The position numbers and the translations under genes were made by a program. A stretch of 64,000 bases of DNA, taken from assembly GCA_963836235.1 (NCBI GenBank), contig CAWIIP010000002.1:1344001-1408000 (forward strand). The letters are read 5' to 3'. This document shows positions 11,083-31,080 of the stretch, piece by piece. This DNA comes from an uncultured Pseudomonadota bacterium (lineage in GTDB: Bacteria > Oederibacteriota > Muellerivitia > Muellerivitales > Muellerivitaceae). The notes under the pieces are model-generated. The model searched no databases and was not told the DNA's origin. It saw only the letters and a list, made by a program, of their open reading frames with translations. The stretch's first letter is position 1. Every line of letters begins with the position of its first letter.

Positions 11083-11125
11083 CCGGAGAGATGGCAGAGT
11101 GGTCGAATGCGTCTGACTCGAAATC
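11083..11125 (+). repeat. attL: 5' half of tRNA-Ser(CGA)
   Basis: 43-bp direct repeat of 30989-31031 with one mismatch; ends 2 nt after the anticodon loop. Confidence 0.95.
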
Positions 11126-11250
11126 TTTCCAGATGATTTTTTTGTTTTTGAAGTCGTAAGTCGTAAAAATTTATTGTCCCCATCAGCATTAAATTGGCCT
11201 TTGCCTGTAATGGTTTTAACACCAAAACGGGCCGAGGCCTTTTTTTTGAA

Positions 11251-11331
11251 TTACCGGACAATACCGGTTAGTGGCCGTCAAAACCGGTAAAAACCGAATT
11301 CGAATGACACGTATATGACACCAAATGACAT
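11251..11331 (+). promoter_or_regulatory. Candidate Xis (10-bp phased ACCGG) and integrase arm-type (ATGACAC) sites
   Basis: Five CCGG-like units at 10-bp period; ATGACAC at 11304 and 11315, ATGACAT at 11325. Confidence 0.6.
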
Positions 11332-11436
11332 AGGAAGGGTCACCAGATTTTGAGCCAAAGAAAGCCTAATGATCTTTTTAATTATTATCTGACTCTAAAA
11401 TAAGCCATTTCCTCCTTCGCGAAATTTTGACAAAGC

Positions 11437-11450
11437 GTGAGATAAGTCAC
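11437..11450. promoter_or_regulatory. Crp/Fnr-family box
   Basis: GTGAGATAAGTCAC, centred ~61 bp upstream of ATG 11505. Confidence 0.7.
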
Positions 11451-11504
11451 ATCGATAAATCGCTAATTGAAGCATTCTAAAACTACAAAAGTTTAGGAGT
11501 TTAA

Positions 11505-12575
11505 ATGGGTCAAATTTCCAAGCGAATTCCCCTCGCCGTCTCGGCCTTAATAACCCTTTTTCTCGCCGTTTGGGGCGGGCTGTTGCGGTTGCAATGGCAT
11601 CTCCCAATACCCGAGGCCAATTGGATCTCTTTTCATGGCCCCTTAATGGTGAGCGGATTCTTTGGGACGATCATCGGACTTGCGCGGGCAAGCGTTCTTA
11701 AATCCAAAGTTGGTCTGTTAGTCCCTCTGGCGACCGCTCTAGGTGCCTGGACCCTTCTTTTAGGTGGCCCGGAAAACTGGGGAGCCCTTTTGTTCCTCGC
11801 CGCCAGCCTGGGTTATCTTTTGGTTTCTATCGCTTTTTTCTGGAAACAACCGGCTTATGCCGCCGCCTTGGCGCTAGCGGGTGGATGTGGATGGGCTTGG
11901 GCCAATTTCTTTTGGTGGCATGGGGAACCTATTCCCCACGTGATGAACGGTTGGCAAATTCTATTTGTCCTGACCATCGCTTCTGAAAGATTGGAAGCCG
12001 TCCATTGGAAATCAACGATTGGTCGGACACTGGCCCTTATGACGGCCTCTGGTTTACTGATGGCCGGTGTGGGCTTGCAACCCTTTCAGCCACCCCTAGG
12101 GGTCCGAATGGTTGCGGCGGGGTTCCTTCTTCTGGCCACGTGTTTATTGGTTTTCGACAGAGGGTGGAACAGCGAAAAAACAGAAGGTTGGAAAGGCTTC
12201 ACCAAGGCTTGCCTGATCTCGGCCTATGCCTGGCTTCTTGTAGGTGGATTAGTCGGGTTTATAACCGCCCCGGTGGATTCGGGTTTCGCTTACGACGCCT
12301 TCCTGCATTGCATTTTCCTGGGGTTGGTATTTTCCATGGTCTTCAGCCATGCCCCTCTTCTATTGCCCCGTGTCTTGAGAACACCAGTTCCTTTCCATTC
12401 GTTCTTTTATGCCCACTGGCTACTTTTACAGATTTCCCTCGTGGCAAGGGTAGGTGGTGACGCATTTGAATCCACCCCTTGGCGCCGATGGGGTGCGTTG
12501 CTAAACGCCTTGGCTCTTTTACTGTTTATCCTCAATACCGCGATTGCCGTGTACCGGGGCAAACGTTCAAATTAA
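11505..12575 (+). CDS. Polytopic membrane protein, NnrS-like (NO-response context)
   Basis: ~12 hydrophobic segments; His motifs HGPLMVSGFFGT and LHCIFLGLVFSMVFSHAP. Confidence 0.55.
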   Translation: MGQISKRIPLAVSALITLFLAVWGGLLRLQWHLPIPEANWISFHGPLMVSGFFGTIIGLARASVLKSKVGLLVPLATALGAWTLLLGGPENWGALLFLAASLGYLLVSIAFFWKQPAYAAALALAGGCGWAWANFFWWHGEPIPHVMNGWQILFVLTIASERLEAVHWKSTIGRTLALMTASGLLMAGVGLQPFQPPLGVRMVAAGFLLLATCLLVFDRGWNSEKTEGWKGFTKACLISAYAWLLVGGLVGFITAPVDSGFAYDAFLHCIFLGLVFSMVFSHAPLLLPRVLRTPVPFHSFFYAHWLLLQISLVARVGGDAFESTPWRRWGALLNALALLLFILNTAIAVYRGKRSN

Positions 12576-12991
12576 GCCTGATTTGACTTTAAATATTTTT
12601 GAAGGACCACAGCGTTGTTGTGATCGGCATCCTTGGCGGCAAATAAAAGTGTCAATGTGCCTCTCTTGGCAGCCTCGAAAAGGGGTTTGAGCGCCTCCCG
12701 CTGGGCAGCCAGTTCCCGGCCATACCTTTTTTGGAATTCCTTCCATTTCTTAGGATCATGATTGAACCATTTCCTTAACCTTGCGCTAGGAGTGACGTCC
12801 CTGGTCCAACCCGACAATCCAGCTTTTTTCTTTTTTATTCCCCTGGGCCAAAGCCGGTCCACTAAATAGCGTTTTCCATCTTTGATTTGAGGCTTCAAAT
12901 AAATCCGTTTGATTTGAATCATGTCCGAATTCCCTACTTGATTGATTCCATTCAAAATTCGTCCAGCGGGTAACTTTATTTGGCCCGTCAC
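12572..12991 (-). CDS. DUF488/YeaO family protein (start may be ATG 12922)
   Basis: IKRIY, RYLVDRLWPRGIKK, PSARLRKWFNHDP, HNNAVVL. Confidence 0.88.
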   Translation of the reverse strand: MTGQIKLPAGRILNGINQVGNSDMIQIKRIYLKPQIKDGKRYLVDRLWPRGIKKKKAGLSGWTRDVTPSARLRKWFNHDPKKWKEFQKRYGRELAAQREALKPLFEAAKRGTLTLLFAAKDADHNNAVVLQKYLKSNQA

Positions 12992-13653
12992 GCTTTGGCC
13001 GGTATAGATGCTTTAGGGGATTGCTGGATACCATAAAGATGACCGCAAGAAGGGCACCGGATGGCCTTCATTTCGGAAGGAATATGCAGACTGTAAACTC
13101 CGGAGCAGGCCGGACAGACGGCCTTTAATCCAATAGGCCTGGCTGTTGAATCGTCGAAAAAAGCGAACCCCGTGGAGGGATCAAAGAATGATCCTTCTTC
13201 TGTCGGAGTCAGCGGTTTTAATAAGGCCTCGGGCAAGACGGGCCCAGCAGCTTTTGGTTTTTCGTAAGTTTCGGCAAACTTCGTGACGTAATCGCACCAG
13301 GCATTGGTAATGTAATAAGCTACATAATGCCCAAGGTTGGGGATCAAAACAGGGACGCGTTTCAAATCCTCGCAATGCTCAAAAACCCAAATATCTTTCT
13401 CTTTAGCAAGGGTGGTAGCCCAAGGGAACCAGTTCTTGGCTTGCGAGGAAACTTCCTCATCCTTACTGAGGACGAAAAACAAGGCGTCCGACTCTAGAAT
13501 TTCCCTTTGGATTCTATCCTTTGAGGCAGGCCCTCCCACGAGGTCCTTATAGGTTACCCAAACCGTTTTAACCGCCACCGCACGGAATACCTTGGAGAAA
13601 AACACTTCAAAGCGCTCATCCATAGAACCATGAACAATGAGTATTTGACGCAT
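12988..13653 (-). CDS. TIR-like domain plus C-terminal zinc ribbon
   Basis: ILIVHG..D, IQREILESDALFFVLSK; CPAC...CPSC. Confidence 0.5.
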   Translation of the reverse strand: MRQILIVHGSMDERFEVFFSKVFRAVAVKTVWVTYKDLVGGPASKDRIQREILESDALFFVLSKDEEVSSQAKNWFPWATTLAKEKDIWVFEHCEDLKRVPVLIPNLGHYVAYYITNAWCDYVTKFAETYEKPKAAGPVLPEALLKPLTPTEEGSFFDPSTGFAFFDDSTARPIGLKAVCPACSGVYSLHIPSEMKAIRCPSCGHLYGIQQSPKASIPAKA

Positions 13654-13677
13654 GACCCTACCTTTCTTGGTTAAGGC

Positions 13678-14025
13678 TTAAGACCGAATCATTGTGAGAA
13701 TCATTTTGAACCGCTTCAACGCCTTAAGGGCGTGCGGCTGTTTCGCTGGCATCAGAATTATCTCGCCGGAATGCAGGTGATAAGGCTTGCCCGCAATGCT
13801 TATTTCCACCTCGCCTTCCAATGCCTGTACGAGCGCGTCGAATGGGGCTGTGTGTTCACTCAACCCTTGTCCCTCATCGAATGCAAAAATCGTTACGGTT
13901 CCAGTCGTTTTCTTGACAATTTCCCGGCTGACAACGGAACCTTCCTGGTAGTTCACTAACTCGGCGGCCTTCGCGACTTCAGCGCCTGGAAGGCCTTTTG
14001 TTTTAGGCGGGATTTCCGGTTGCAT
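13678..14025 (-). CDS. Cupin domain protein
   Basis: FAFDEGQGLSEHTAPFDA...PHAL; start ATG 14025 with AAGGAAGG RBS. Confidence 0.9.
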   Translation of the reverse strand: MQPEIPPKTKGLPGAEVAKAAELVNYQEGSVVSREIVKKTTGTVTIFAFDEGQGLSEHTAPFDALVQALEGEVEISIAGKPYHLHSGEIILMPAKQPHALKALKRFKMILTMIRS

Positions 14026-14035
14026 GATGCCTTCC

Positions 14036-14494
14036 TTAATTTTTAAACGCGGGAATTTTGGGCCAATCATGGATGTTGAATTGAATTTCAGTCTCCACCC
14101 ACTCTTTTTCTGCCTGTGTGAATTGGTCCTCGATTTCCTTGAACAACTTATCTTCCTCGAAATAAATGTGTTGGATGAGTTTTTCAGCGAACAATTTTAA
14201 CGATTTCAAATTTCTCGTTTTTAACAGTTGGTTTAACTCCTTATGCTCCCGCCGGGACCGGGCCAATAATGGATCATCAGAACCCTTATGGAAAGCGAGT
14301 TGATCTAACATCTTCTCTTCCACACCGATATGCGCTTCCAAGTCCGACTTGAAGAATCTTTCAGCTTTTCGCTTCAATTCCTCCAGTTCCTTCTTCGAAG
14401 GTTTTTTTTCCAACATCCTTTGAAGCGTTTTGGCCGTCATCAATCCGAAATGGTGGGCATGGGTTATAGGCCACAGGAATTTTTCACGTTTCAT
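14036..14494 (-). CDS. Hemerythrin/HHE domain protein
   Basis: AHH, HIGVEE, EH, HIYFEEDKLF. Confidence 0.85.
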   Translation of the reverse strand: MKREKFLWPITHAHHFGLMTAKTLQRMLEKKPSKKELEELKRKAERFFKSDLEAHIGVEEKMLDQLAFHKGSDDPLLARSRREHKELNQLLKTRNLKSLKLFAEKLIQHIYFEEDKLFKEIEDQFTQAEKEWVETEIQFNIHDWPKIPAFKN

Positions 14495-14544
14495 GTCTTC
14501 CTCCTTGATTTAGTTTTTCAGTATTCTCGTTTATCTTCAAAATT

Positions 14545-15291
14545 TCAATCCAACCAGCCGTTATGAATGGACTTCTGGAAAAGAACATTGTTTTCCTTGT
14601 GGACGTGTTGATGCAAATCGTCCTCCAAATCCTTCAATCCTAAGTAAAGTGCTTTGTAAGACCGGCAGGCGTCGGCAGGAGCGGTGAGATCGTTTGTGAT
14701 CTTATGGATCTCAATCCATTCCTCTCCCGTCATGCCGTGTTCCCACATCAGGATTTTTAAAGGATGATTCTCCAAAGGCCCCCCTTCGAAAGGATTGGGA
14801 ATACCTTCTTTTTTGCCGTTTGCCTCTTCCAGGGCCTTCAGATAGGGGAAAACTTGCTCTTCTTCCTTCGCCATGTGTCCTTCCATCTCCTCGGACATTT
14901 CATTGATGATCTCCTCCAATCGGCAAAGTTCGGAATGGTTGCCGCCATGAACTCCCTCGACCTTTTGCGAAAGAGCCTTTAGGCGGCTTAGTTGGGTTCG
15001 TGTAAAAGCATGATGCTTTCCCAGGATATGGTCGATCAATTCGGCCATAGTTTGGGTCTTCCAATCGGGTAATACCTCCTCCTGATTCGATTCGGCCTCA
15101 AGCCTCTCTAAATCCGAAACAACCTTCTCTACCGGAACGCCCACTAACGAACAGGCCTCCCTCAATGACCGGGCTCCCCCACAGCAGTAATCGATTTTCA
15201 AACCCTCAAAAAGTGGTATAGTCCTCGGAAATTCGGAAGCGATATCCCCCACCGTTTTGTCGGCCTCGAATTTTTTGGTTTCTGTTTTCAT
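14545..15291 (-). CDS. ric: Iron-sulfur cluster repair di-iron protein (Ric/YtfE/DnrN/ScdA)
   Basis: IDYCCGG, HH, VHG, HMAKEE, EH, HVHKENNVLF. Confidence 0.95.
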   Translation of the reverse strand: MKTETKKFEADKTVGDIASEFPRTIPLFEGLKIDYCCGGARSLREACSLVGVPVEKVVSDLERLEAESNQEEVLPDWKTQTMAELIDHILGKHHAFTRTQLSRLKALSQKVEGVHGGNHSELCRLEEIINEMSEEMEGHMAKEEEQVFPYLKALEEANGKKEGIPNPFEGGPLENHPLKILMWEHGMTGEEWIEIHKITNDLTAPADACRSYKALYLGLKDLEDDLHQHVHKENNVLFQKSIHNGWLD

Positions 15292-15351
15292 TTTGAATCT
15301 CCTTGTGTCCTTCTTACGGTTTCAATTTAAGCCCCAAGGGTTCTTGACGCC

Positions 15352-15365
15352 GTGACTCAAGTCAC
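15352..15365. promoter_or_regulatory. Crp/Fnr-family box between divergent ric and the regulator
   Basis: GTGACTCAAGTCAC. Confidence 0.8.
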
Positions 15366-15415
15366 TAAAAGACCCTATTCTTGAGGAAACCCTTCTCCAA
15401 CGATATGATGGGCAA

Positions 15416-16084
15416 ATGGATAAGATTGCTTCCTTGAAAAAAACGGAAATGTTTGGCTCTCTCGGGCCGGATGAACTGGGCGTTATTGCTGGTGTTTGTG
15501 TGGAAAAGAGGCTGAAAAAAGGGGAGGTTCTCTTCATATCCGGGGATAAGGCCAGAGGCCTTTATGTCATCGCCAAGGGTTCCTTAAGGGCCTATCGGGA
15601 TAACACTGAAGGGCGGGAGCAAATCATCCACTTGGAAAAGGCCGGAACCACCATCGCCGAAGTACCTACCTTTGATGATGAACCTTATCCCTCTTCAGTC
15701 CGTGCCGAGGAAGAAAGCGAAGTGCTTTTCATCTCCAGGGAGGATGTCAAAAGGCTTTGCTTGAGACACCCCGCTATCGCCCTTTCCGCCTTGAAGCTGA
15801 TGGCTTCCCGTCTTCGTAAAACAGCGGCCCTTGTTGAATCCCTTTCCCTAAAGGAAGTCGATCAACGTTTAGCAGCCTTTTTGTTGCAGGAATTCAGGGA
15901 TAAAAAATTAAAAAAACTAAAATTGCCGCCCATTTCCGTCATTGCCGCGCGGCTGGGGTCGGTTCGGGAAGTCGTTTCAAGGGCTTTAGCCAAGCTTGAA
16001 AAGGGAGGGTTCATTTCGATTGATAAACAACGAAACGCAAGCCTAACCAATGTTAAAGGTTTGGAAGTTTTTTTAAAAAAATAA
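15416..16084 (+). CDS. Crp/Fnr family regulator (HcpR/DNR-like)
   Basis: cNMP-type domain; HTH IAARLGSVREVVSRAL; no FNR Cys cluster. Confidence 0.92.
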   Translation: MDKIASLKKTEMFGSLGPDELGVIAGVCVEKRLKKGEVLFISGDKARGLYVIAKGSLRAYRDNTEGREQIIHLEKAGTTIAEVPTFDDEPYPSSVRAEEESEVLFISREDVKRLCLRHPAIALSALKLMASRLRKTAALVESLSLKEVDQRLAAFLLQEFRDKKLKKLKLPPISVIAARLGSVREVVSRALAKLEKGGFISIDKQRNASLTNVKGLEVFLKK

Positions 16085-16101
16085 AATGGGAAGACTCCAA
16101 T

Positions 16102-16587
16102 TTATTTATCGGTTGGTTTTTCGGTCAAGCGGTGGGGGACATGAGTCTCGGCAGGTTTGTAAGGAAGTAACTTTTTCGTCTCACGGTCTTTTTCTTCCTC
16201 AGTCAGGGTTTTTTCCACTCTGGGGAAAAAAACATCCTCCTCAAAACGGATATGGGCGGTAAGAGTATCGGCAAAGAGTTGAAGATCTTTTTGGGTCACT
16301 GACGTTGATAAGGCTCGGATGGTTTGATGGTCTTGCAATATTTTTTTAATGTCCGAATCATCCGATCCTACATGATTTTCAAAAACCTTTAGGAGTTCTT
16401 CCTCTTCCCCGCGAAAATGCGGTTCTAAATCTCTAGCAAAAAGGCCCGAGATTTCTTGGCTCAAGACAACTAGGGTATTTTTTTCACCTTCGTTCAGCTT
16501 GGAAAGGCGGTCTCGGATATTCCGGGCCGCCACCAGCGCCCCATGGTGTCCTTGGGTCAACGGCCAAAGAAATTTTTCACGTTTCAA
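16102..16587 (-). CDS. Hemerythrin/HHE domain protein
   Basis: GHH, HFRGEEE, DH, HIRFEEDVFFP; paralog of 14036-14494. Confidence 0.85.
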   Translation of the reverse strand: MKREKFLWPLTQGHHGALVAARNIRDRLSKLNEGEKNTLVVLSQEISGLFARDLEPHFRGEEEELLKVFENHVGSDDSDIKKILQDHQTIRALSTSVTQKDLQLFADTLTAHIRFEEDVFFPRVEKTLTEEEKDRETKKLLPYKPAETHVPHRLTEKPTDK

Positions 16588-16621
16588 GATTCAGGACCCT
16601 TTTTCCCCTAACGTTTCTTCG

Positions 16622-18883
16622 TCATTCCGGATTGGCGTCCGGTTTTCTCAAATAAAACATCGATCTAACCGTGAAGTAGAGAAGAGGCAAAACTCCGCCA
16701 ACGACGAAAGTTAGGTCGCCTGCCATCCTGGCCCAAGTAAGTTTTTGGACGATGGGTTGGCTCCAGAAATCCACGCTTCGGGCAAACCAGTAGCCTCGCG
16801 TGTAACTCTGGACCATCTCCAAAATCCCCACCGGGAAAATATCCAGTAATAGCATCATCATCAGGCCGATTTGCAGGGACCAAAAGGAGATTTTTAATAA
16901 ACGGTTGGACCAGTGCTCAGGCTTGACCAGGAACCGCAGGACGAACACTAAGGCAGCGATGGCCAGGTTGCCGTAAACCCCCATCAAGGCCGCATGGGCG
17001 TGATTTGGCGTTAAGTAGGTGGCGTGTTCGTAGTAGCTGACAATAGGCAGGTTGATAAGGAAACCAAATATTCCGGCTCCTACGAAGTTCCAAAAGCCGA
17101 CCGCAATCAGGAACATAATCGCCCAGTAATGGGCGAAAAATCCGTCCGATTCCTTCGTGCCTGCCTCCCCTCTCCTGAGCTTGGCGAAGTCATAAGCCTC
17201 AAGGGTCAAGAGCAATAAAGGAACCACTTCCATGGCCGAGAAGAAGGCTCCCAAGGCCAGATTGATGGCTGGTTGGGCAGTCCAGTAATAATGATGGCCC
17301 GTACCGATGAGTCCCGATCCCAAATAAAGGATTATATCCAAGTAAACCACCCGGACAGCGGTTTTGGTTGTCACTAAACCAAGGATAACGAAGAAGTACG
17401 CCACTACGATGGTAGTGAATAGTTCAAAGAAATTTTCCACCCACAAATGAACCACCCACCAACGCCAAAAATCGGCGATAGCGAAATTAGTTCTCGGGGT
17501 GTAAAGCAAACCCGCCGAGAACATCAAGGGAATAGCCAGGATGCCGTAAACGAGAAGGTAAGGCAAACTGCCCCAATCCTGCCCCTTAAGCCTTCCCCAA
17601 ACCGTTCGAAGCACCAACACTGCCCAAATACCCATGCCAGCGGTCAAAAGGATTTGCCAGAAGCGACCCAGTTCCAAATATTCCCAACCTTGATGCCCGA
17701 ACCAGAACCAATACTGTCCAAGCTTGGCCTTGATGCCCAAATATTCACCAACGATGGAACCAACCGCCACCAATACCACCGCGCCAAAGAGGACGTTCAC
17801 CCAGAAGGCTTGGTATTTAGGTTCTCTTTGGCCAATGAAGGGAGCGATGAATAATCCAGCCGCCAGCCAAGCAGTGGCGATCCAAAATATGGAAAGCTGT
17901 AAATGCCAGGTGCGGGTGATAGTGGTGGGCAGGATATCCCGGATATCTAATCCATAAAATCCCGTGGCTTCTACGAAATAGTGAGCCGTGAACACACCCA
18001 TGAGGGTTTGGAAAGAAAAAAGCAACGCCACAATGAGGAAATATTTATAAGTCGCCACCTGGCTGGGAGTGATTTTGAAATCTTTTAACGGAATGCTTTT
18101 CTTTATCGCGGGCTCATCCCCACCCCACCCTAAGTAATCGAAACGGCCAAAAAACAACAGGACCAAAGCGCATCCCCCCAACAAAGAGATCAATGAAAGG
18201 ACACTCCAAAGGAATACGGCTCTGGTAGGCCGGTTCCCGACAGCATCCTCAGGCGGCCAATTGTTGGTGTAACTGTAATTTTTTCCGGGTCTTTGGGTCG
18301 ATGCCGTCCAAGCGGTCCAGGCGAAGAAATCGGTGAGTTTTTGGACTTCATCCGTGGTTTTGATGTAATTTTTTGGAAGGCTGTGGTCTTCCCCACTGTT
18401 CATGAAAACATCAACGTAATGGGTAACCAGGGGAGGCCATGCTTGAGCCTGTTCTTGAGTAAGGGTTAAAGTCTGTGTGTTTTCATCGTATCGGTTGGTT
18501 TTCGCGTCCGAAATCACCATCTGACCGATTTTCGCTTTTTCACTTTCCGAAAGATTTCCATAAGGCTGTTTGAATTCCTCTTCGGCCTTCTCGTCGCGCT
18601 GAATCCAGGCCGAGCGGTGCATGTAGTCGTCCGTAAAATCGGGCCCACGATAGGCACCATGACCAAAGATAGAACCGTAATCCATAAGGCCGTATTGCTG
18701 GAAAACGGCTTGGCCTGTCAAGATATCCTCTCCGGTGAAAAGGACTTTTCCAGAAGCCTCAACCACCTTGGCGGGTATAGGAGGAGCGTTTTCGTAAACT
18801 TTTTTCCCCATGAACATCAAAACTGAAAATCCAATAATGACAACCAATACCGCCGCATGCCGCCAAGCTTTGGAAATTTCCAC
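16622..18883 (-). CDS. norB: Quinol-dependent nitric oxide reductase (qNOR)
   Basis: GSIFGHGAYRGPDFT, RTWHLQ, WWVVHLWVENFFE, GTGHH, HAHAALMGVYG; single 753-aa subunit. Confidence 0.96.
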   Translation of the reverse strand: MEISKAWRHAAVLVVIIGFSVLMFMGKKVYENAPPIPAKVVEASGKVLFTGEDILTGQAVFQQYGLMDYGSIFGHGAYRGPDFTDDYMHRSAWIQRDEKAEEEFKQPYGNLSESEKAKIGQMVISDAKTNRYDENTQTLTLTQEQAQAWPPLVTHYVDVFMNSGEDHSLPKNYIKTTDEVQKLTDFFAWTAWTASTQRPGKNYSYTNNWPPEDAVGNRPTRAVFLWSVLSLISLLGGCALVLLFFGRFDYLGWGGDEPAIKKSIPLKDFKITPSQVATYKYFLIVALLFSFQTLMGVFTAHYFVEATGFYGLDIRDILPTTITRTWHLQLSIFWIATAWLAAGLFIAPFIGQREPKYQAFWVNVLFGAVVLVAVGSIVGEYLGIKAKLGQYWFWFGHQGWEYLELGRFWQILLTAGMGIWAVLVLRTVWGRLKGQDWGSLPYLLVYGILAIPLMFSAGLLYTPRTNFAIADFWRWWVVHLWVENFFELFTTIVVAYFFVILGLVTTKTAVRVVYLDIILYLGSGLIGTGHHYYWTAQPAINLALGAFFSAMEVVPLLLLTLEAYDFAKLRRGEAGTKESDGFFAHYWAIMFLIAVGFWNFVGAGIFGFLINLPIVSYYEHATYLTPNHAHAALMGVYGNLAIAALVFVLRFLVKPEHWSNRLLKISFWSLQIGLMMMLLLDIFPVGILEMVQSYTRGYWFARSVDFWSQPIVQKLTWARMAGDLTFVVGGVLPLLYFTVRSMFYLRKPDANPE

Positions 18884-19163: not shown

Positions 19164-20258
19164 GTGGCTTATAAACCTTTATTCCAGGTAACGCCCCCCA
19201 TGCTGAAGCTCATCGGAAAAATGGAGGTGGCGCGGGAGGTTGTGGAAAGCCTGGAAATGCCCATCGACCTAGAAAACGAATTCCGACAGGAAGCCTCGGC
19301 GAGGATGACCCACTACTCCACGAAGATCGAGGGGAACCGCCTCACCCTGAAACAAACGAAGGAATTGCTGGCGGGCCAAACGGTTATTGCCCGTGAGATC
19401 GACAAGCGCGAGGCGATGAACTATTACGATTGCCTCGACCTGGTCCACCGGCATTCCAAGACCAAAAAACCGGTGACGGAAGCCCTAATCAAAGAGATCC
19501 ATTCGGTTGTCCAGAAAGGGATCGTGAAAGGGAAACTCCGGGGGGAATACCGGGAGGCCCAAAACGCCATATTTGATTCGGTGACCAGGAAACCGGTCTA
19601 TTTTCCACCTGATTCCAAAGAGGTTCCCCCCCTCATGAAGGCTTTCGTTGGCTGGCTCAACCACGACCTGGAAACCCACCCAATCCTCAAGGCGGGCATA
19701 GCCCATTACCAATTCGTCACAGTCCACCCTTTCATGGATGGCAACGGACGGACCGCTAGGGCGGTTGCCACCCTCCTCCTTTACCGGGAGGGATACAGCT
19801 TGAAGCGGTTCTATTCTCTGGAGGAATATTACGCCGAAGATTTAAAGGGCTATTACAACACGCTCCACCAATGCCAAGGAGTCCATTACCACAATAATCC
19901 CAACCCGGACATCAGCCCGTGGCTGGAATACTTCCTCAATGGTGCTGCCATTGTGTTCGAGCGCGTCAAGGAAAAGGCCCTGGCCGCATCTAAAAAACAG
20001 CCGTCCCCCCAAAGCAAACAGGATATTGAACGCATGCAGAAGATCGGGCCAAGGGAAAGGCGTGTGCTCGTTTACTTCGGAAAGAATTTACAGCTTCGGA
20101 CGAAAAACCTTTGTTCCCTTTTCAACATCAAGGAACGTGCCGCCAGGGATTTGCTGACCAAGTGGATAGAAATGGGATTAATTGAAAAACAGGGTTCGGG
20201 AAAGCGGGATGCCTATTACGTTTTATCGGCGGAATATCGGCGTCTTATCGGCAGTTAA
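19164..20258 (+). CDS. Fic family protein with C-terminal wHTH
   Basis: HPFMDGNGRTAR; inhibitory-type STKIEGN. Confidence 0.93.
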   Translation: MAYKPLFQVTPPMLKLIGKMEVAREVVESLEMPIDLENEFRQEASARMTHYSTKIEGNRLTLKQTKELLAGQTVIAREIDKREAMNYYDCLDLVHRHSKTKKPVTEALIKEIHSVVQKGIVKGKLRGEYREAQNAIFDSVTRKPVYFPPDSKEVPPLMKAFVGWLNHDLETHPILKAGIAHYQFVTVHPFMDGNGRTARAVATLLLYREGYSLKRFYSLEEYYAEDLKGYYNTLHQCQGVHYHNNPNPDISPWLEYFLNGAAIVFERVKEKALAASKKQPSPQSKQDIERMQKIGPRERRVLVYFGKNLQLRTKNLCSLFNIKERAARDLLTKWIEMGLIEKQGSGKRDAYYVLSAEYRRLIGS

Positions 20259-21653: not shown

Positions 21654-21678
21654 ACCATTAAACCGTTTACACCTCTAA

Positions 21679-22790: not shown

Positions 22791-22929
22791 TACTCACTGT
22801 TGAGTAAAAATACTCAATGACTGAGTAATCGGGGGATCCGCATTAAAGGATGTTTTTGTGGCCGTCCCAAAGCCAGCGGGTCTCTTGAATTAGGTAATAT
22901 CGAATTAATTAGGTAATGAATTAGGTAAT
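22791..22929. promoter_or_regulatory. Operator-like cluster upstream of the second Fic gene
   Basis: TACTCA-N4-TGAGTA and TACTCA-N5-TGAGTA; AATTAGGTAAT at 22888, 22907 and 22919. Confidence 0.65.
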
Positions 22930-22985
22930 GTGTTAAACTTTGCCCCTGGCCATCCCGGCTATAACCAAAACTTTTAGGAAACCCC

Positions 22986-24035
22986 ATGCTGACATTAAGC
23001 CGTTTTTCATCCAAAACCTTTTCTATCCCAACCATGACTTCATGGTACTTGTCCGATTTGGGCGAGGCAAAGGGGCGGCAGGAGCTTTTCACCAAACAAT
23101 CACCCCAAAAGTTAAAGGCCCTTCGTGAACATGCCATCATCGAAAGCGCGGTTTCTTCCAATCGCATCGAGGGCGTCCAGATCGACCAAAAGCGGGTTGC
23201 GACCGTTGTATTCGGGAAGTCCCACTTGAAAGACAGGGACGAGGAGGAAGTCCGGGGCTATCGGCAGGCGTTGAAGTGGATACACGAAGAGGGGAAGGAT
23301 ATCCCTGTTTCTGAAAAGACGATTTTAACCCTCCATCGCATGACTCGTGGCCAAATTTGGGACGCGGGGAAATACAAGGAAAAGGACGGGGATATCATCG
23401 AGAAATCCCCCGATGGCCGCCATCGGGTAAGGTTCAAGACGGTTTCGGCCAAGAAAACACCTACCGAGATGAAGGAACTTATTCAACTCAACGACGAATG
23501 TTTCAAGGAGAAGTGGGTTCAACCCCTCATCGCCACAGCCCTATTCAACCTGGACTTCCTGTGTGTTCACCCTTTTCGGGATGGCAATGGCCGTGTTTCC
23601 CGTCTTCTTTTTCTTCTCCAATGCCATCGGTTGGGGTATGAAGTGGGAAGGTTCATCAGCTTGGAACGGCTTATTGAGGAAAACAAAGAGCGGTACTACG
23701 AAACCTTGGAGCAAAGTTCTCAAGGGTGGCATGAGGGAAAACAAGATCCTTGGCCCTTCGTTAATTACTTGCTTTTCATTCTCAAAGCCGCCTACCAGGA
23801 ATTTGAAAGCAGGTTGGAGGCAACTTCCGGGTCAAAGGGTGATAAGACCGAATTGGTATTATCCGCCATGACCCGATATTCCGGCCCTTTCCGGGTATCA
23901 GAGTTACAGAAGGATTGCCCAGGGGTCGGGGTGGACATGATCCGAAAGGTATTGAAGGATTTAAAAGCTCAGGGCCGGGTGGATTGTTTAAGCCGTGGAA
24001 AAAACGCCCAATGGAAACGCACCAAGAAATGGTGA
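22986..24035 (+). CDS. Fic family protein
   Basis: HPFRDGNGRVSR; SSNRIEG; C-terminal wHTH. Confidence 0.93.
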   Translation: MLTLSRFSSKTFSIPTMTSWYLSDLGEAKGRQELFTKQSPQKLKALREHAIIESAVSSNRIEGVQIDQKRVATVVFGKSHLKDRDEEEVRGYRQALKWIHEEGKDIPVSEKTILTLHRMTRGQIWDAGKYKEKDGDIIEKSPDGRHRVRFKTVSAKKTPTEMKELIQLNDECFKEKWVQPLIATALFNLDFLCVHPFRDGNGRVSRLLFLLQCHRLGYEVGRFISLERLIEENKERYYETLEQSSQGWHEGKQDPWPFVNYLLFILKAAYQEFESRLEATSGSKGDKTELVLSAMTRYSGPFRVSELQKDCPGVGVDMIRKVLKDLKAQGRVDCLSRGKNAQWKRTKKW

Positions 24036-24050
24036 GGGGTTAAAGAACCC

Positions 24051-24431
24051 ATGCACATCAACCGAAACGCGGTGGTCCTTAAGGCCAAACAACCTTTTGT
24101 GGATTGGATCAACACGACCCCCAGGGAACCAGGGGATGAATTGCCACGCTTTACCCTGGAACAGTTCAACCAGGAATGTATGGTCCTGTTGATCCCTGAA
24201 TTCGATTCCATCCAGGAAGCCAGGGAGCAGGTTCGCCAGTTGAAGATGGACTTGTTTGAAGAGTCGTTGGAAGACTGGTATACGGACGAGGAAGATTGGC
24301 CCCAAAACCGCACCGAGAAAATGTTCGATGAGTGGTTTAGCCTGGAAATCCATTCCGAAGTGATTGATACCGTGGATGGACCCATTGAGAAAGAAGACTT
24401 AGGGAATGAATCGTTTCCGGCCTTGGAATAA
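24051..24431 (+). CDS. Small acidic hypothetical protein
   Basis: 126-aa D/E-rich ORF directly after Fic; INRNAVVLKAKQPFVDWIN...WP..RT..MFDEWF. Confidence 0.75.
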   Translation: MHINRNAVVLKAKQPFVDWINTTPREPGDELPRFTLEQFNQECMVLLIPEFDSIQEAREQVRQLKMDLFEESLEDWYTDEEDWPQNRTEKMFDEWFSLEIHSEVIDTVDGPIEKEDLGNESFPALE

Positions 24432-24586: not shown

Positions 24587-24790
24587 GAAATCTTTCCGGA
24601 TAGATTTTTTATTTTTGAAAACGTAAGCCGTAAAAATTCATTGTCCCCATCAGCATTAAATTGGCCTTTGCCTGTAATGGTTTTAACACCAAAACGGGCC
24701 GAGGCCTTTTTTTTGAATTACCGGTCAGTACCGGTTAGAAACGGTCAAACCCGGTAAAACCCGACTTCAAATGACACGTATATGACACGG
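24587..24790 (+). repeat. Second, internal copy of the element's left-end arm
   Basis: ~200-bp diverged copy of 11120-11321, starting at GAAATCTTTCC and including the phased CCGG units and two ATGACAC. Confidence 0.92.
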
Positions 24791-24866: not shown

Positions 24867-25274
24867 TTAACGAATTTTAAGTCTGGCTTTATTAGCGAGG
24901 AGATTTGCGAAGTTCACTTGTTGTTGGCGTTCCGTTTTAGGCGGCCAACCGGCAATATTTATATGCCTGTTGGCAGGCGATGGTTCTAAGACTAAATTAG
25001 TGCTGGTTACCTCTTCCGCAGAAATATCGCCTCGGGCTTTTAGATTTGCTTTCTTCTTCGGCGCAAATCTAGCCGTTTGAACAATGTCCCACACTCCAGA
25101 TTCAGATAAACCATCGATACCAAAAACAGACGTTTTGTTATCAATAGGAGAAGGCATAAAAACTGCGTAATTTATTTTTTCCGGGATCTTTGAATAATGT
25201 TCCGTATTGAAAATGTATCTTGTTAGTTCTTTCATCGGCGGAAGGGATGGCGGGGTTTCTTGAGATGCTTCCAT
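24867..25274 (-). CDS. Hypothetical protein, candidate ADP-ribosyltransferase-fold toxin
   Basis: LTRYIF...FMPS..NKTSVF...RHINIAGWP; last gene of an AT-rich operon. Confidence 0.5.
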   Translation of the reverse strand: MEASQETPPSLPPMKELTRYIFNTEHYSKIPEKINYAVFMPSPIDNKTSVFGIDGLSESGVWDIVQTARFAPKKKANLKARGDISAEEVTSTNLVLEPSPANRHINIAGWPPKTERQQQVNFANLLANKARLKIR

Positions 25275-25279
25275 TTTGA

Positions 25280-25771
25280 TTAGACTAAACTAAAGTTCTT
25301 ATTTAGTTTTTCTACAATTATTTTCGGTAAACGAGTTAGATCATTGGCGGGCCTTTTACCGAAATTATTTTCTGGCCCATCAATTTCCGAAAAGATTAGA
25401 AAATCATTATCAAAAGCAAGAACTAATCTTTTATCGCCCTTTACCCATTCAAAACCTATATTGCCTGAAGGTTCTGGCACTACTCGGGGAATAATAATAT
25501 TGGCATTAAGTAAGGATGCCAATTTTTCCGCACGTTCCTTTTCCAGTTTTGTTATAGGTATTGCGCCATAGCCATCCCAATCTTTTTCATTACAGTTTTC
25601 CATTATTTCCATTAGTTTTCCATCAATGATTTCTTTTGTTAATCCAAAAACTGATTTCGATTCTTCTTCTTGTTTAACTTCGTCGTAAGAAGAAGAATCA
25701 TTACTTCCATTGGAGAAAGAAAGAAACTGGGGGTAAGTATGAAAAGTTCTAATTGTGTTGGTATTGCTCAT
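25280..25771 (-). CDS. Hypothetical protein (candidate antitoxin)
   Basis: DWDGYGAIPI, PEPSGNIGFEW; ATGA overlap with the upstream gene. Confidence 0.6.
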   Translation of the reverse strand: MSNTNTIRTFHTYPQFLSFSNGSNDSSSYDEVKQEEESKSVFGLTKEIIDGKLMEIMENCNEKDWDGYGAIPITKLEKERAEKLASLLNANIIIPRVVPEPSGNIGFEWVKGDKRLVLAFDNDFLIFSEIDGPENNFGKRPANDLTRLPKIIVEKLNKNFSLV

Positions 25772-26493
25772 TTAAAAAGCTCTCCTGTTTTTTCTGTTAA
25801 AGATTCAAAAAATACATCATCAGCATATTTGTTTAATAAATCCAGGTTATCCCATATTTTATCATCTGACTCTGTAGTTAATTTAAAAACATCTATATCG
25901 AAAATAAAGGTTGATTCGGGTTTTTCATCTGTTTTTGGGATGGTCGATAAACCTAAATTTGCTTTAAACCCATTCCTATCAAGAGAATACCGAAACATAA
26001 AATTTTCAAGAACGCCCAATTTCTCTGAGTTTACTTGAGGTAGGTTCAAAAAATAATCGTTTAGAGTGAAAACGGTTTCGGGGATGGTAATTTTGTTTAT
26101 GTATTTTGTTGCGACACGAAAAATCGAAGGCTTAAATGCTTCAGAATATAGATTCCAAAAAGAGTGTGATTCATTTTTTAAAATATCCCACTTTTCATAA
26201 AAGTTCAACAAACTGAAAGTAAATCCATTAGTGCGATATTGAACAGCCCTACTTTCATCTTTTGATTTTGCAATAAAACCATTTTTAAGTTCAGATGTTT
26301 CTGCTTTTAGTTGTTTGCCTATCGGCCCAAATTTTATTTGATGTTGGCTCAGGATATTCTTTTGAGGAAAATCAGACTTTATTTTATCAAATAAGGATTC
26401 GAGCGCTTCGAAAGTTACGTTGCTATTTTGCGCTATTTGGATATCGACCAGGGATTCTATTATAGGCGGTTTGGAAAAATGCCTGTATTTCAT
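25768..26493 (-). CDS. TIGR04255-like protein
   Basis: PPIIESLVDIQ, Y..W, RVATKYINKI, FIFDID, FFESLTE. Confidence 0.8.
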   Translation of the reverse strand: MKYRHFSKPPIIESLVDIQIAQNSNVTFEALESLFDKIKSDFPQKNILSQHQIKFGPIGKQLKAETSELKNGFIAKSKDESRAVQYRTNGFTFSLLNFYEKWDILKNESHSFWNLYSEAFKPSIFRVATKYINKITIPETVFTLNDYFLNLPQVNSEKLGVLENFMFRYSLDRNGFKANLGLSTIPKTDEKPESTFIFDIDVFKLTTESDDKIWDNLDLLNKYADDVFFESLTEKTGELFK

Positions 26494-26608
26494 GCTAAAG
26501 GTATACCAGAAAAGATGCCTGAAAAAAATGTTCGTTTTTCAATAACCAAACTTAATGGGTGCTTGCCAGAATAAAGGTTTTCAAACTATGACTTTCGTGT
26601 AATCCTTT

Positions 26609-26694
26609 TGGGGGGAAGCCTTCCCCCTGGCCTCGGCTACCTTCGGTGATCCTCGGCACACCCCCTTCGCCTGGGGCTTTGCCCCAAGCCCCTT
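26609..26694 (+). repeat. Structured intergenic repeat, modules A and B fused
   Basis: Matches 21679-21735 followed by 24433-24467. Confidence 0.8.
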
Positions 26695-26842
26695 TCATCA
26701 TCATCTTCTTGAGGTATGCATGGATAGAAGGGCATATACTTTTTAAAAAGTATTTGCGTTTTTATCCGCTATTAAAAATGACTGCCAAAATCAAAAAACA
26801 CAAGCCCCTTAAAAAATAAGGGGTTTGTGAAATTGGACATTT

Positions 26843-27760
26843 ATGAATTGGAAAATCGAGTTTTGTAATGTTTTGTTTTTCCAAAACAAAGACCCTGAAA
26901 ATTTCGACAAAGCCAATCGATTAAAGTTTTCTAAACTTCCAAAATCTCTTTTTAGGTTCAGAGCTTGGAAAGACTACAGCTTAAAAGAAATTAGCGAAAA
27001 CAAAATTTGGCTTTCGAACCCAAGAACATTTAACGATCCTTATGATTGCTCTGTCTCAGCAGATTATAAAAAGGTCGTCCTTTCGCTGTTTCGAAAATTG
27101 CCACAAACAACAAATATTTCGGATAAAACTTGGAAGGAAGTAGAGGAGAGCGATGACCCAGTCCTGTATCTTTCCCGTTACCTTGCTCAGAGGGTTGTCC
27201 CCCCCGATTTGCAATATGTTGAAAACGCAAGACTGTTGAATTTAGAAGTAAAATCAGCAGTAGCAAACAAGGAAAAAAGCTGGAACGCGATGAAAGACGA
27301 AACAAAAGTTGCGTGCTTTAGCCAGCGGTGGGATTCATTACCAATGTGGGCGCATTACGCCGATCAACACCAGGGGTTTTGTATTGAATATGATCTTTCC
27401 AATGAATCCGAAGGACGAACTGCTCCCCTTTTTCCAGTCATTTACTCTAAAGCACTAGTGCCCTTGGACATCACCAACGAATTAATGAATCTGCCAGGCA
27501 ATAGTGGCCATTTGGCAATCAAAGCCGCCATTTACAAAAATATGGATTGGAGTTATGAACGCGAGTGGCGGCTTGTTTTTTACACAGGAGATGATCAGAA
27601 AATCGAAATAAAAGGATATCCCATCAAGGCAATTTACTTGGGCACCAAAATCAACGATGAACACAAGAGGCAGTTAATAGAGCTGTCCAAAAAGGTTAAA
27701 TTTAAGATTTTTCAAATGAGGGTTTCGGCCAATAAATTCAAAAAAGAAAAAATCGACTGA
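26843..27760 (+). CDS. DUF2971 domain protein
   Basis: LFRFR, FNDPYD, ACFS, MWAHYAD.HQGFCIEY, WSYEREWR. Confidence 0.88.
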   Translation: MNWKIEFCNVLFFQNKDPENFDKANRLKFSKLPKSLFRFRAWKDYSLKEISENKIWLSNPRTFNDPYDCSVSADYKKVVLSLFRKLPQTTNISDKTWKEVEESDDPVLYLSRYLAQRVVPPDLQYVENARLLNLEVKSAVANKEKSWNAMKDETKVACFSQRWDSLPMWAHYADQHQGFCIEYDLSNESEGRTAPLFPVIYSKALVPLDITNELMNLPGNSGHLAIKAAIYKNMDWSYEREWRLVFYTGDDQKIEIKGYPIKAIYLGTKINDEHKRQLIELSKKVKFKIFQMRVSANKFKKEKID

Positions 27761-27764: not shown

Positions 27765-28352
27765 TTGAAAGCCATTAGCGAGTTCTACAATCTGGCCTAT
27801 CCCAAGTTCATCGACTTCATCAACAAGTGCCGGGAAGCCCAGGTGAACCTCTTTTTGGCCCACCAGTCCATGGGGGATTTGAGGGGCGTTTCGGAGGAAT
27901 TTCTGGAACAGGTGATGAACACTGCCAGCAACAAGATCATTTTGCGGGTGAACGACCCGGACACGGCGGAGGGCTTCGCCCGGCAATTCGGAACCGAACG
28001 CGACCAGGACTACCGGGTGGAGAGTTTTGGGAAGGATGGACAGATGATGGGTTATTCCAAGCCCCCGGTTGAGAAGTTCCGTTTCCACCCCAACCGCATC
28101 AAGGAATTGAAGGTCGGCCAAGCCATCGTCAAGGTCGTGGGTGAATCGGGGGTCAAGGTCTTCCAAACTGCCTTGCGGCCGGCGGATAACCCATGGGATG
28201 GCTTTAACACCCAAAACGGCGTGGCCCACCGGACCCGCCGTGATGCAATCAATGAAAGCTCCCTCCCCGAGCTGGTAGGCGAAAACAATGGCGGCCCGGA
28301 GCCAGGCCCCAAAAACCCTGGAAGCCCCATGGGGGATGAAGATGCGGCCTGA
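27765..28352 (+). pseudogene. C-terminal fragment of a type IV coupling protein (TraD/VirD4-like)
   Basis: Begins at the Walker B position (SEF); CREAQVNLFLAHQSMGDL, NTASNKIILRVNDPDTAE; no Walker A or TM segments. Confidence 0.8.
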
Positions 28353-29205
28353 GAGCGCCCTCGAACCGAGGGACCTGGACATCCTGGCTTACATCCATTC
28401 CAACAAATTCATCACCACCCGGCTCTTTCACCGGAAGTTCCATCCGGCCCAATGCTATACGACCGCCTGTGTCCACCTTAGGAGCCTGGTCAGCCGGGGA
28501 TGGCTCCTCAAAACCCAAAACCTCCCGAACGACGACACCTTTCATTACCTGTCCCGCCCCGCCCTGAAGAACCTTTCGGATCTTGCCCGAATCCTTACCT
28601 CCAAGGAAATCCGCTCCCCCCATATCAATCCCTTTGAGAGGGAGCACGACAAGCGGGTTATTCAAATGCGCGTCCATTGGGAGATGGACAAGGCTTTGGA
28701 GGGGTTGGTTTGGCTGTCCGACTACGAGATGCGGTGCGGCCTCAAGATGTCCTGGAAGAAGGCCTTGGAGGAAGGGCGAGGGTGGGACTTGGCCGGGACC
28801 AAGCTTCAAAGGCTGAACCGCCGGACCCCGGACGGGTACTTTGAGGCCGCCTTGGAAGGCAGGCCCCAAGCCTTCGTCTTGGAGTACGAGCACTCCCCCT
28901 ACAACCGGGACCAGATGACGGCTTTGGTCCTGAACCTCAACAAGGACTTCCCGGAGGCCTGCCGGTTGATCGTCAGCCAAAACAAGACCCAGGCCGTAAG
29001 GCTGGTGCAGGGGCTTTCCACCTTCCTGAAACACGACCTCCGGAACCGGAACCTTTGGGCTTTTTCCTTTTTCGAAAAGGCGGCGAACCTGCCCTTTAGG
29101 CGGGTGCCTTGGGTGAACCTGGAATGGGAATACCTTCCCTTCGTGAAGGACCCCATCCTGAAGACGGCCCCAGCGGAGGAAAAGACAAAGGAGGTGGCGT
29201 CATGA
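28288..29205 (+). CDS. Replication-relaxation (Replic_Relax) family relaxase; start may be 28336
   Basis: RDLDILAYI N-terminal wHTH, EHD, RTPDGYF...LEYEHS PD-(D/E)xK-like core; follows the coupling-protein remnant. Confidence 0.75.
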   Translation: MAARSQAPKTLEAPWGMKMRPESALEPRDLDILAYIHSNKFITTRLFHRKFHPAQCYTTACVHLRSLVSRGWLLKTQNLPNDDTFHYLSRPALKNLSDLARILTSKEIRSPHINPFEREHDKRVIQMRVHWEMDKALEGLVWLSDYEMRCGLKMSWKKALEEGRGWDLAGTKLQRLNRRTPDGYFEAALEGRPQAFVLEYEHSPYNRDQMTALVLNLNKDFPEACRLIVSQNKTQAVRLVQGLSTFLKHDLRNRNLWAFSFFEKAANLPFRRVPWVNLEWEYLPFVKDPILKTAPAEEKTKEVAS

Positions 29206-29587
29206 ACTGTAAGCGGACCCATAAACAGCTTATGGCGAAAATCCACGGAAACGCCCGCGAAAACCAGGGGTTCGCCTGTCTTGCGACGCCAGACCCCACT
29301 CCCCCTGGATCAAGTTCAGATCGCAGGAAAGCGGTAGTGGGGTCTGGCCTCTTAGACAGACTCACCCCTAAAAGCGCGGGCGCGAAGGATGAAGAAGAAT
29401 TAAAGAATTTAAGGATTAAGACGAAAGACAAAGTCAAAGGCAACGGCAAAACCAACACCGTGGAAAACCCCCCGAACAACCTGTTGGTAATGAAACAGGT
29501 TATGGACGCGGGGTTTTCCACACCTTTCCCCGAAGGTGGCCCCTTTGGGGCCTGTTATTTTTTAAACCTTATAAGCGGAGGTAAACC

Positions 29588-29845
29588 TTGGTAGATCGTA
29601 GGAAGAATGTAGAACGGCGGAATTATTTAATGTCGGATAAGGATATCGCTGAATGGGCCGGGGTTTCTCCCAATACGGTCCGTTACTGGCGGCAAACGGG
29701 TGTCTTGCCTTTCGAGAAGGTCGGCAAATACCCTAGGGTTTGGTATTCCGTGCTCCTTCAAATTTTTCAAAAAGCCAGTCCACATTTAGCGGGTGCCGCT
29801 GATACAATACCTCTTGCTGATGGGGACATTAGGAGGCAGTCATGA
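29588..29845 (+). CDS. HTH excisionase-like protein
   Basis: KDIAEWAGVSPNTVRYW...LPFEKVG; GGAGG RBS; ATGA overlap with the integrase. Confidence 0.8.
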   Translation: MVDRRKNVERRNYLMSDKDIAEWAGVSPNTVRYWRQTGVLPFEKVGKYPRVWYSVLLQIFQKASPHLAGAADTIPLADGDIRRQS

Positions 29846-30942
29846 GTAAACCTAATGTCTATGGATTGCCCCAACATCTCCGCAAGGACGACAAGGGGTA
29901 TTTTTTGGATTATTTCATCCGGGAAGGAGGATTGCGGAAGCGCAAAAGGGTCCGGTTGGGCCAGATTCCGGCGGTCCAAGCTAAAAGGGTTCTAGCCCAA
30001 AAAATGCAGGCTATCGTTGAGCAAAAGTATTTTGACAGCGACAAGCCCCAAACCACCTTCCTGGAAGCGGCGGATTCCTTCCTGGCCTATTCCAAGGCCC
30101 GGAAAAAAACTTTTAGGAACGACGCCCAGATAGTGGAAAGGCTGAAAGTCTACTTTGGAACCCGGCCCTTGGAGAGCTTAACGGTGGACTTGGTGGACGC
30201 CTACCTGATTCAAAGGCGGCAACAAGGAAGCCAAGTTAAGCCGGGCAAGACCTTAAAGAACGCGACCCTCAACCGGGACGTTGCCTGCCTGAAAACCATC
30301 GTGAGCCGGGCGGTTTTGAACAGGCAGTTGGACCGTGACCCGATTGTGGGGCTTCAACGCTTTAAGGAACAATCCAGGGACAGGACTTTGACCCCCGAGG
30401 AGTACCAGGCTTTGCTGGCCTGCTGCCCTCCCCACTTGCATAGGATCGTGGAACTGGCTTATTGGACCGCGATGAGGCGGGGGGAAATCTTGGGTTTACG
30501 TTGGGATCAGGTGGATTTTAAAAACGGGGTCATCACCCTGGAAGCCACCGACACCAAAACCCAGGAAAAGCGGGAAATACCGTTGAACGAAAGGCTAGTT
30601 GCCCTATTTCAACGGATACCCAGGACTCTTGGAAGCCCTTACGTGTTTTTCTACCAAGGAAAGCGTGTAAAAGACCCCAGGAATGGTTTTGCGACCGCGT
30701 GCCGGAAAGCGGGAATCGAGAATTTCAGGTTCCACGATCTGAGGCATTGCGCGGTGACGAACTTCCGCAAGGCCGGGGTCAGCGATACGGTAATCATGTC
30801 CATATCGGGCCATAAGACCTACGCGGTCTTTAAGCGTTATGACCGGGTGGATCGTGAGGACCGGAAAGCCGCTTTGAACCGGGTAGCCGGTTTGAATGAC
30901 ACGGTTATGACACGGACCACGAAACAGGAAGTCCAAGCTTAA
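29842..30942 (+). CDS. Tyrosine integrase
   Basis: TAMRRGEILGLRW, TKT, FHDLRH, SGHKT, RY. Confidence 0.96.
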   Translation: MSKPNVYGLPQHLRKDDKGYFLDYFIREGGLRKRKRVRLGQIPAVQAKRVLAQKMQAIVEQKYFDSDKPQTTFLEAADSFLAYSKARKKTFRNDAQIVERLKVYFGTRPLESLTVDLVDAYLIQRRQQGSQVKPGKTLKNATLNRDVACLKTIVSRAVLNRQLDRDPIVGLQRFKEQSRDRTLTPEEYQALLACCPPHLHRIVELAYWTAMRRGEILGLRWDQVDFKNGVITLEATDTKTQEKREIPLNERLVALFQRIPRTLGSPYVFFYQGKRVKDPRNGFATACRKAGIENFRFHDLRHCAVTNFRKAGVSDTVIMSISGHKTYAVFKRYDRVDREDRKAALNRVAGLNDTVMTRTTKQEVQA

Positions 30943-30990
30943 AGAGAAAAGTTGTAATCCCCTTTTCAACAAAGGGGTTTGGCATGACCC

Positions 30991-31080
30991 GGAGAGGTGG
31001 CAGAGTGGTCGAATGCGTCTGACTCGAAATCAGATTTACGAGCAATCGTAACGGGGGTTCGAATCCCTCTCTCTCCGCCA
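30991..31080 (+). tRNA. tRNA-Ser(CGA), contains attR
   Basis: Acceptor stem GGAGAGG/TCTCTCC, anticodon arm TCTGA-CTCGAAA-TCAGA, long variable arm, TTCGAAT loop, encoded CCA. Confidence 0.97.

Follow-up and report, generated by a model that had tools for sequence, protein, structure and literature searches.

The usual reason given for the replacement of tRNA 3' ends by integrating elements is that the tRNA must keep its promoter. About 96% of tRNA islands replace the 3' end, and the initial annotation of the DNA studied here likewise quoted 3' duplication as the rule; the Islander survey lists 159 of 3919 islands (4%) as having a 5' fragment (Hudson, Lau and Williams 2015, PMC4383910). pTN3-like integrases use the tRNA 5' half and the tRNA is then expressed from the integrase promoter, an arrangement described as seldom met in bacteria, citing Williams 2002 (Badel 2021, PMC8371274); in pTN3 itself, from Thermococcales, the tRNA is rebuilt apart from its original promoter (Cossu 2017, PMC5495485). 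Here we describe a window of 64,000 nucleotides (nt; contig CAWIIP010000002.1, positions 1,344,001 to 1,408,000) from an uncultured Pseudomonadota bacterium, in which a tyrosine-integrase island has replaced the 5' half of tRNA-Ser(CGA). Taken singly, the locus shows, in an uncultured host, an arrangement that is uncommon but already known, and the novelty that its rarity had seemed to imply was overstated, the 5'-fragment class being already in print (Islander, pTN3). The island is a member of that known rare class; what it adds is that, at the level of its integrase family, 5' replacement is frequent and repeated and comes with a plausible promoter and terminator solution.

The island shares with the 5'-fragment islands of Islander an onboard tyrosine integrase, a co-oriented 5' fragment upstream of the tRNA and an anticodon-centred site (PMC4383910). 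As with pTN3, attB is the tRNA 5' half, with 41 base pairs (bp) shared (PMC5495485, PMC8371274). The archaeal pTN3 differs in that attP lies inside the integrase gene (int) and integration splits the gene, whereas here int is whole, the att core lies 80 nt beyond its stop codon, the host is bacterial, and the element has lambda-like arm repeats and an excisionase candidate. The island works like pTN3 yet is not a pTN3-like suicidal integrase, since int is unsplit.

The limits of the island are best set at 11126-31031 (positions are those of the window), with a repeat spacing of 19,906 bp (19.9 kilobases, kb). A 43-bp repeat at 11083-11125 and 30989-31031, with a single mismatch (A7 versus G7; E 5e-17 within the window), comprises a 2-nt leader and tRNA positions 1-41 in ARAGORN numbering, the 7-nt anticodon loops starting at 11117 and 31023. 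The sole tRNA of the window, Ser(CGA) at 30991-31080 with its CCA present, lies downstream of the terminal fragment in the same orientation and within the 2-200 kb that Islander allows. Inside the interval is a PF00589 tyrosine integrase, while Xer and integron models score below cutoff, and the island has a GC content of 46-48% against 54% in both flanks. Every sequence statement of the initial annotation holds, including that the duplicated segment is the 5' half ending 2 nt past the anticodon loop, that the tRNA starts 48 nt past the int stop (30942) and that its rebuilt 7-66 pair is G-U. The features that carry the argument are these:

11017..11046, plus strand: candidate host tRNA promoter, TTGATA-18-TACAAT (consensus match only)
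11085..11125, plus strand: stranded 5' half of tRNA-Ser(CGA), A7 allele, on the host side of attL (repeat comparison)
11126..11331, plus strand: left (P') arm of the element, with three TGACAC/T arm-type direct repeats at 11305, 11316 and 11326 (homologous to related left arms)
11196..11247, plus strand: intrinsic-terminator-like hairpin followed by 8 T (folding)
29588..29845, plus strand: HTH_17/MerR-like excisionase candidate (xis), kept before int in relatives (domain match)
29800..29808, plus strand: extended -10 site TGATACAAT ahead of int, promoter candidate for int itself and, via read-through, for the rebuilt tRNA (family conservation)
29842..30942, plus strand: intact tyrosine integrase, 366 amino acids (aa) (domain match, alignment)
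30897..30913, plus strand: right (P) arm-type direct repeats (30897, 30908) within the int 3' end, encoding a conserved C-terminal DTxMT motif
30991..31080, plus strand: rebuilt tRNA-Ser(CGA), with G7 in the 5' half from the element and U66 in the resident 3' half (tRNA scan, repeat comparison)

The hairpin at 11196-11247 and the site before int at 29800 go beyond the initial annotation, as do a second left arm at 24587-24788 and a serine recombinase overlapping the tRNA 3' half, both taken up below.

We infer that Int crosses over within the anticodon loop, with the core at 11117-11123, because of where tRNA fragments end in relatives and how far the arm repeats lie from the loop. In relatives, 3' fragments begin at tRNA positions 32-34 and 5' halves stop at or just past the loop. 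Across the family, the spacing between arm repeats and loop forms two clusters, near 100 and near 122 nt, which differ by two helical turns; in the window it is 125 nt, and 13 of the 17 loci of its geometry fall at 121-125, the other four being two at 164 nt and two (L055, L058) with no detected arm pair. By its sequence, a crossover in the 7-nt loop places the site in class A (anticodon-loop). The left-arm repeats lie about 180-200 nt to the right of the stranded half. Integrase residues R212, K239, H298, R301, H324 and Y333, the catalytic set expected in this family, are invariant in 34 aligned relatives. Replacement of the 5' half by such a crossover, with separation of the tRNA from its native promoter, is thus supported as first proposed.

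How often this happens becomes apparent from the relatives of the integrase. A 34-sequence integrase alignment was scanned against genomes, and the best 80 of 535 stretches gave 77 loci (cited by L numbers), the closer ones mostly from candidate division FCPU426. The best 120 integrase relatives among the matches listed have 59-100% identity, whereas phage and plasmid collections gave distant integrases only (about 26-31% identity among the matches listed); a host open reading frame (ORF) of the window, 38930-39409, has 85% identity to an ORF of an FCPU426 locus, which makes this division the probable home of the host. Sixty-four integrase ends with at least 50% identity were sorted by geometry: int runs toward a displaced 3' fragment in 30 and toward the 3' end of an opposite-strand tRNA or fragment in 11, 7 are unclassified, and at 16 a whole co-oriented tRNA follows int, as in the window. 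This 5' class thus makes up 25% of ends that are not independent, against 4% in Islander. Its targets span seven tRNA types, namely Ser(TGA) seven times, Phe(GAA) three times, Leu(CAG) twice, and Arg(TCG), Arg(TCT), Pro(TGG) and a doubtful Lys(TTT) once each, and tRNA-Arg(TCG) is targeted in both modes (L001 and L038). In both 5'-type loci that have the left arm in the fetched DNA, a stranded 5' half precedes it (L038 2425-2473, L042 5875-5914). The 5' type and the 3' type with int facing the fragment have the same orientation, the sole difference being the tRNA half that attP carries. In a quick tree of all 77 rows the 5'-type integrases are scattered, and their monophyly is rejected in an approximately unbiased (AU) test (p-AU 5.6e-5, at least seven changes; 31 rows, 10 of them 5'-type). 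The tree indicates that the family has switched between 3' and 5' replacement repeatedly and that the 5' mode is a recurring option. Narrow literature searches found no description of this FCPU426 integrase family or of repeated switching and, at strict settings, no paper on how bacterial elements replace tRNA 5' halves, although Islander-type supplementary tables may hold similar cases.

Several observations from these loci stand beside the main comparison. FCPU426 records such as CAWKIF, CAWKAR and PLZG have at least five family members per genome, at different tRNAs. In L013 (2539-2610), just after int, the 3'-type right arm seems to retain the 5' half of its target tRNA in decayed form, with 6 of 7 acceptor pairs, and weaker decayed halves follow int in 3'-type L036, L039, L035 and L044; in this test, which covered 32 rows, they are suggestive of a possible relic of a switch from 5' to 3' replacement. 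Several of these five loci share TTGACA-17-GAAAAT across the arm repeats. L008 has a stranded tRNA-Gly GCC 5' half (19231-19267) behind a near-perfect TTGACT-17-TATAAT, apparently from a different element. Where Ser(TGA) is replaced (L014, L016, L025, L031, L033, L042, L060), Ser(GCT) lies 46-385 nt downstream, so a two-tRNA cluster may have been cut off from its promoter. Between L014 (7941-11065) and the window (27779-30912), backbone proteins are 79-92% identical but xis and int 58-65%, which suggests that elements aimed at different tRNAs have swapped integration modules.

On the host side of the island, the promoter-like sequence that had been seen before the stranded copy is indeed there (score 10), with a second TACAAT at 11001 that has TTGTGG 18 nt before it, but taken alone TTGATA-18-TACAAT is within chance (1 found versus 1.7 expected in shuffles). 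Promoter-like sites also precede the stranded halves of L038 and L042 (scores 8 and 9). That this promoter reads into the island, as had been suggested, is weakened by the left-arm hairpin, which stands 71 nt downstream of the stranded half, with about 260 nt still to go to the first cargo ORF (start 11505). A standard terminator scan overlooked the hairpin, with its long, interrupted stem, and folding detected it (z -5.0; 0 of 200 shuffles as stable). Across 15 distinct arms, pairing holds in 93% of cells and two-sided changes occur in 8 of 16 pairs, a covariation that exceeds all slid controls and all 500 shuffles, the shuffles ignoring relatedness and the structure being derived from the same alignment. 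In the 3'-type relatives L003, L017 and L034 the same hairpin stands directly after the rebuilt tRNA. With a covarying hairpin and U8 in this place, transcripts from the host promoter most likely stop short of the cargo, the likely product being a short RNA of about 190 nt. The stranded half (11085-11130) can also pair with the first left-arm bases in an 8-pair stem that includes A7, which may be incidental.

On the element side, the 120 nt next to the rebuilt tRNA hold no sigma-70-like site, as the initial annotation had it, the best score there being 5 versus 10 for the stranded copy, but a conserved candidate lies farther off, before int. In 53 of 57 integrases the motif TGnTAnnnT starts 37-44 nt ahead of the int start codon, versus 11 of 798 background windows. 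Because this family-wide extended -10 site, 39-42 nt ahead of int, points into the tRNA, the rebuilt gene is probably not promoterless and would be read from there through int, which turns the earlier idea that the tRNA depends on element transcription into a concrete candidate. The only hairpin in the spacer between int and the tRNA, at 30959-30977, was rejected as a terminator because it is not above chance (z -0.67, 3 T only). Expression of the tRNA from the int promoter would be as in pTN3, the candidate features here being a conserved promoter-like site and no strong terminator between; the cited sections of the Islander paper give no mechanism for expression of the rebuilt tRNA (PMC4383910). 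In the integrative and conjugative elements (ICEs) ICEKp1 and ICEclc, integration links the transcription of the tRNA to that of int and relocates a terminator (PMC13023037). The two are mirror images: there the tRNA promoter drives int after 3' integration, and here the int promoter would drive the tRNA.

We propose a model where a lambda-like integrative element of the FCPU426 tyrosine-integrase family carries the 5' half of its target tRNA in attP, and we regard this, taken as a whole, as the best explanation and a reasonably probable one. Int would cross over in the anticodon loop, so that the host 5' half stays behind its promoter at attL and the element half joins the host 3' half; this geometry can be read from the anatomy with high confidence. 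The P' arm, on the far side of the core, would hold the family's only strong terminator. In the circle this terminator would stop transcription of int and, because it follows int across the core, the element would need no terminator before the core; once integrated, it would end the host-promoter transcript at about 190 nt and insulate the cargo, a role that we consider probable. The int transcript from the extended -10 site, with no strong stop before the core, would then run through the rebuilt tRNA, to be freed by normal processing, and for this step we think the chances somewhat better than even. Such a layout would make 5' replacement cheap and would explain the repeated switching in the family. 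Excision of the whole island would restore the A7 tRNA at its own promoter.

A number of points weigh against this reading. Many loci share genomes or are near copies, so the geometry counts are not independent; a left end is visible in 2 of the 16 5'-type loci and not in the other 14; and L055, which like L058 has no detected arm pair, may merely abut a host promoter. The 31 rows of the AU test were picked from the 77 after the first tree, the model was simple (LG+G4) and the direction of switching is unrooted. In a scan built on the integrase family, the 77 loci include no empty site and no other instance of Ser(CGA) or of pdxH, the host gene to the left of the island. The left-arm hairpin overlaps a symmetric, possibly protein-binding site, and its covariation may in part reflect DNA symmetry. 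The extended -10 site stands about 1.2 kb away from the tRNA and is kept whatever the geometry, so serving the tRNA is not what it evolved for. Promoters of integrases are in many cases weak, a poor fit to supplying abundant tRNAs such as Phe, and L048 and L049 keep, by eye, TTGACG-17-TATAGC before Phe. The promoter score has little power, failing to separate native from control sites (p 0.21), so a dedicated proximal promoter may still exist.

Such a promoter, in the right arm of the element and missed by consensus scans, would leave the geometry as it is. Relatives target highly used tRNAs, and promoter-like sites stand before the tRNA in some 5'-type loci, with TGn-TAAAAT in L047 and TGGACG-17-TAGCAT in L056 besides those of L048 and L049. 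Yet the right arm of the window scores lowest in its group (5, together with L025), none of the 17 5'-type loci reaches 10, 5'-type loci differ in score no more than chance from 3'-type controls (p 0.44), and no common motif is evident across the Ser(TGA) loci; we consider a dedicated promoter unlikely. Less likely still is that the rebuilt tRNA-Ser(CGA) is nearly silent and tolerated because wobble lets tRNA-Ser(UGA) decode UCG. Many bacteria can do without Ser(CGA), the rebuilt copy has its non-standard G-U at 7-66, and an antisense recombinase gene overlaps it. The gene is otherwise intact, however, with CCA, TCG makes up 39 of 186 Ser codons versus 6 TCA in eight flanking host ORFs, and in relatives this layout is also found at Phe(GAA), Ser(TGA) and Pro(TGG), which may or may not be single-copy. 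Dispensability through wobble, which the initial annotation had offered as a way out, fails as a general rule at those tRNAs, while for Ser(CGA) it could apply.

The stranded A7 copy had been taken for the native half, and base pairing supports this indirectly: 7-66 is Watson-Crick in 34 of 35 distinct CCA-ending tRNAs of the family loci and the window, the rebuilt tRNA being the only G-U, and other Ser tRNAs of these loci covary as A7-U66 or G7-C66. A7 is likely the host allele, and G7 was likely brought from another host, G7-U66 resembling a chimera of two alleles. Were G7 native instead, within the same geometry, A7 would be a later G-to-A transition in a dead copy that is free to drift; position 66 may also derive from the serine recombinase element rather than from the host, and stranded and rebuilt halves are identical through the loop in L038 and L042, so allele differences are not the rule. 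Against the pairing data we find this alternative improbable. Although the island holds other internal repeats, that the 5' repeat is a local duplication, rearrangement or assembly artefact seems very remote in the face of the arm repeats, xis-int and the GC shift, and L038 and L042, two independent relatives with the same two-ended layout at other tRNAs, largely refute it.

In the interior and the surroundings of the island the remaining features are:

10271..10918, minus strand: pdxH, host gene in the left flank, divergent from the stranded half (NCBIfam TIGR00558 above cutoff)
11505..18883, unstranded: unit A cargo, nitric-oxide-stress cluster (domain matches)
19164..24431, unstranded: rest of unit A, with two Fic proteins, a broken DUF2971 copy and palindromic repeats (domain and repeat matches)
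24587..24788, plus strand: second left-arm copy, 91% identical, at the junction of units A and B (repeat comparison)
24867..27760, unstranded: unit B cargo, a TIGR04255-family operon and a DUF2971 gene (domain matches)
27765..29594, plus strand: backbone, a C-terminal remnant of a type IV coupling protein and two conserved ORFs with no family match (domain matches, relatives)
31036..32583, minus strand: solo large serine recombinase of a separate element outside the island, its frame ending antisense inside the tRNA 3' half (domain match)

The second left arm opens with GAAATC, the 6 nt that close the att repeat, and divides the island into unit A (11126-24586) and unit B (24587-31031, 6.4 kb). 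Islander counts 125 tandems, and sibling elements are described as accumulating at one tRNA while older ones decay (Islander, PMC4383910; Tycheposon island growth, bioRxiv 2020.12.28.424599). An Islander tandem array calls for an integrase and a tRNA fragment in every member, whereas the window holds one int, unit A has no int remnant, and the tRNA fragment at the middle junction is down to 6 nt. The island reads as a decayed tandem. Its simplest history, which we think likely, is that two siblings integrated in tandem and the first then lost its xis-int-half-tRNA right end by a deletion ending at the core, presumably by Int acting at a secondary site or by microhomology. The 5'-type geometry also sets the window apart from tandem islands: if the inner, 6.4-kb unit B alone were excised, the tRNA would be left broken, without its 5' half.

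The cluster of unit A encodes a NorB-type nitric oxide reductase, an RIC di-iron protein, two hemerythrins, a Crp/Fnr regulator, a cupin, DUF488 and a membrane protein; the last, of 356 aa, has no Pfam or NCBIfam match and may resemble NnrS. The broken DUF2971 copy (21129-21654) is 82% identical to that of unit B. Palindromic repeats occur in both units (21680-21737, 26610-26694, 24434-24466) and in L031 (3015-3104, 3614-3686). The coupling protein is full-length in L014 (598 aa). No relaxase or type IV secretion system match was found among 23 island ORFs scanned in Pfam, nor any virion structural or packaging gene among the island ORFs scanned, with PHROGs outside the search; the island is neither a complete ICE nor a prophage. 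Outside it, the minus strand at 51697-52514 has long coding repeats rich in Thr, Ser and Pro.

The serine recombinase reads as a separate and widespread kind of element, because 47 of 120 homologues fit a pattern of tRNA-derived C-termini, which is crude, has no background rate and will include some chance matches. No displaced 3' tRNA fragment was found for it (best non-self match 16 of 24), nor a second att site; a 7-nt T-loop match near 32688 is possibly chance. The tRNA 3' end may be host- or recombinase-derived.

In a broader context, a quarter of the sampled family members have done the opposite of the usual 3' replacement, at several tRNAs and more than once. The paired natural comparisons that result, such as tRNA-Arg(TCG) in L001 and L038, can test the promoter solution and the tie of the host to the element. 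It is tempting to speculate that the family layout, with a constitutive-looking int promoter and a terminator across the core, allows repeated flips between 3' and 5' replacement, and that the 5' state, by placing host tRNAs, some likely essential, under element transcription, is a maintenance device arising from geometry alone, although we offer this as a tentative idea. If it is true, the host would forfeit its tRNA supply by silencing the int operon or deleting part of it, and in a composite island like this one, loss of the inner unit would break the tRNA outright.

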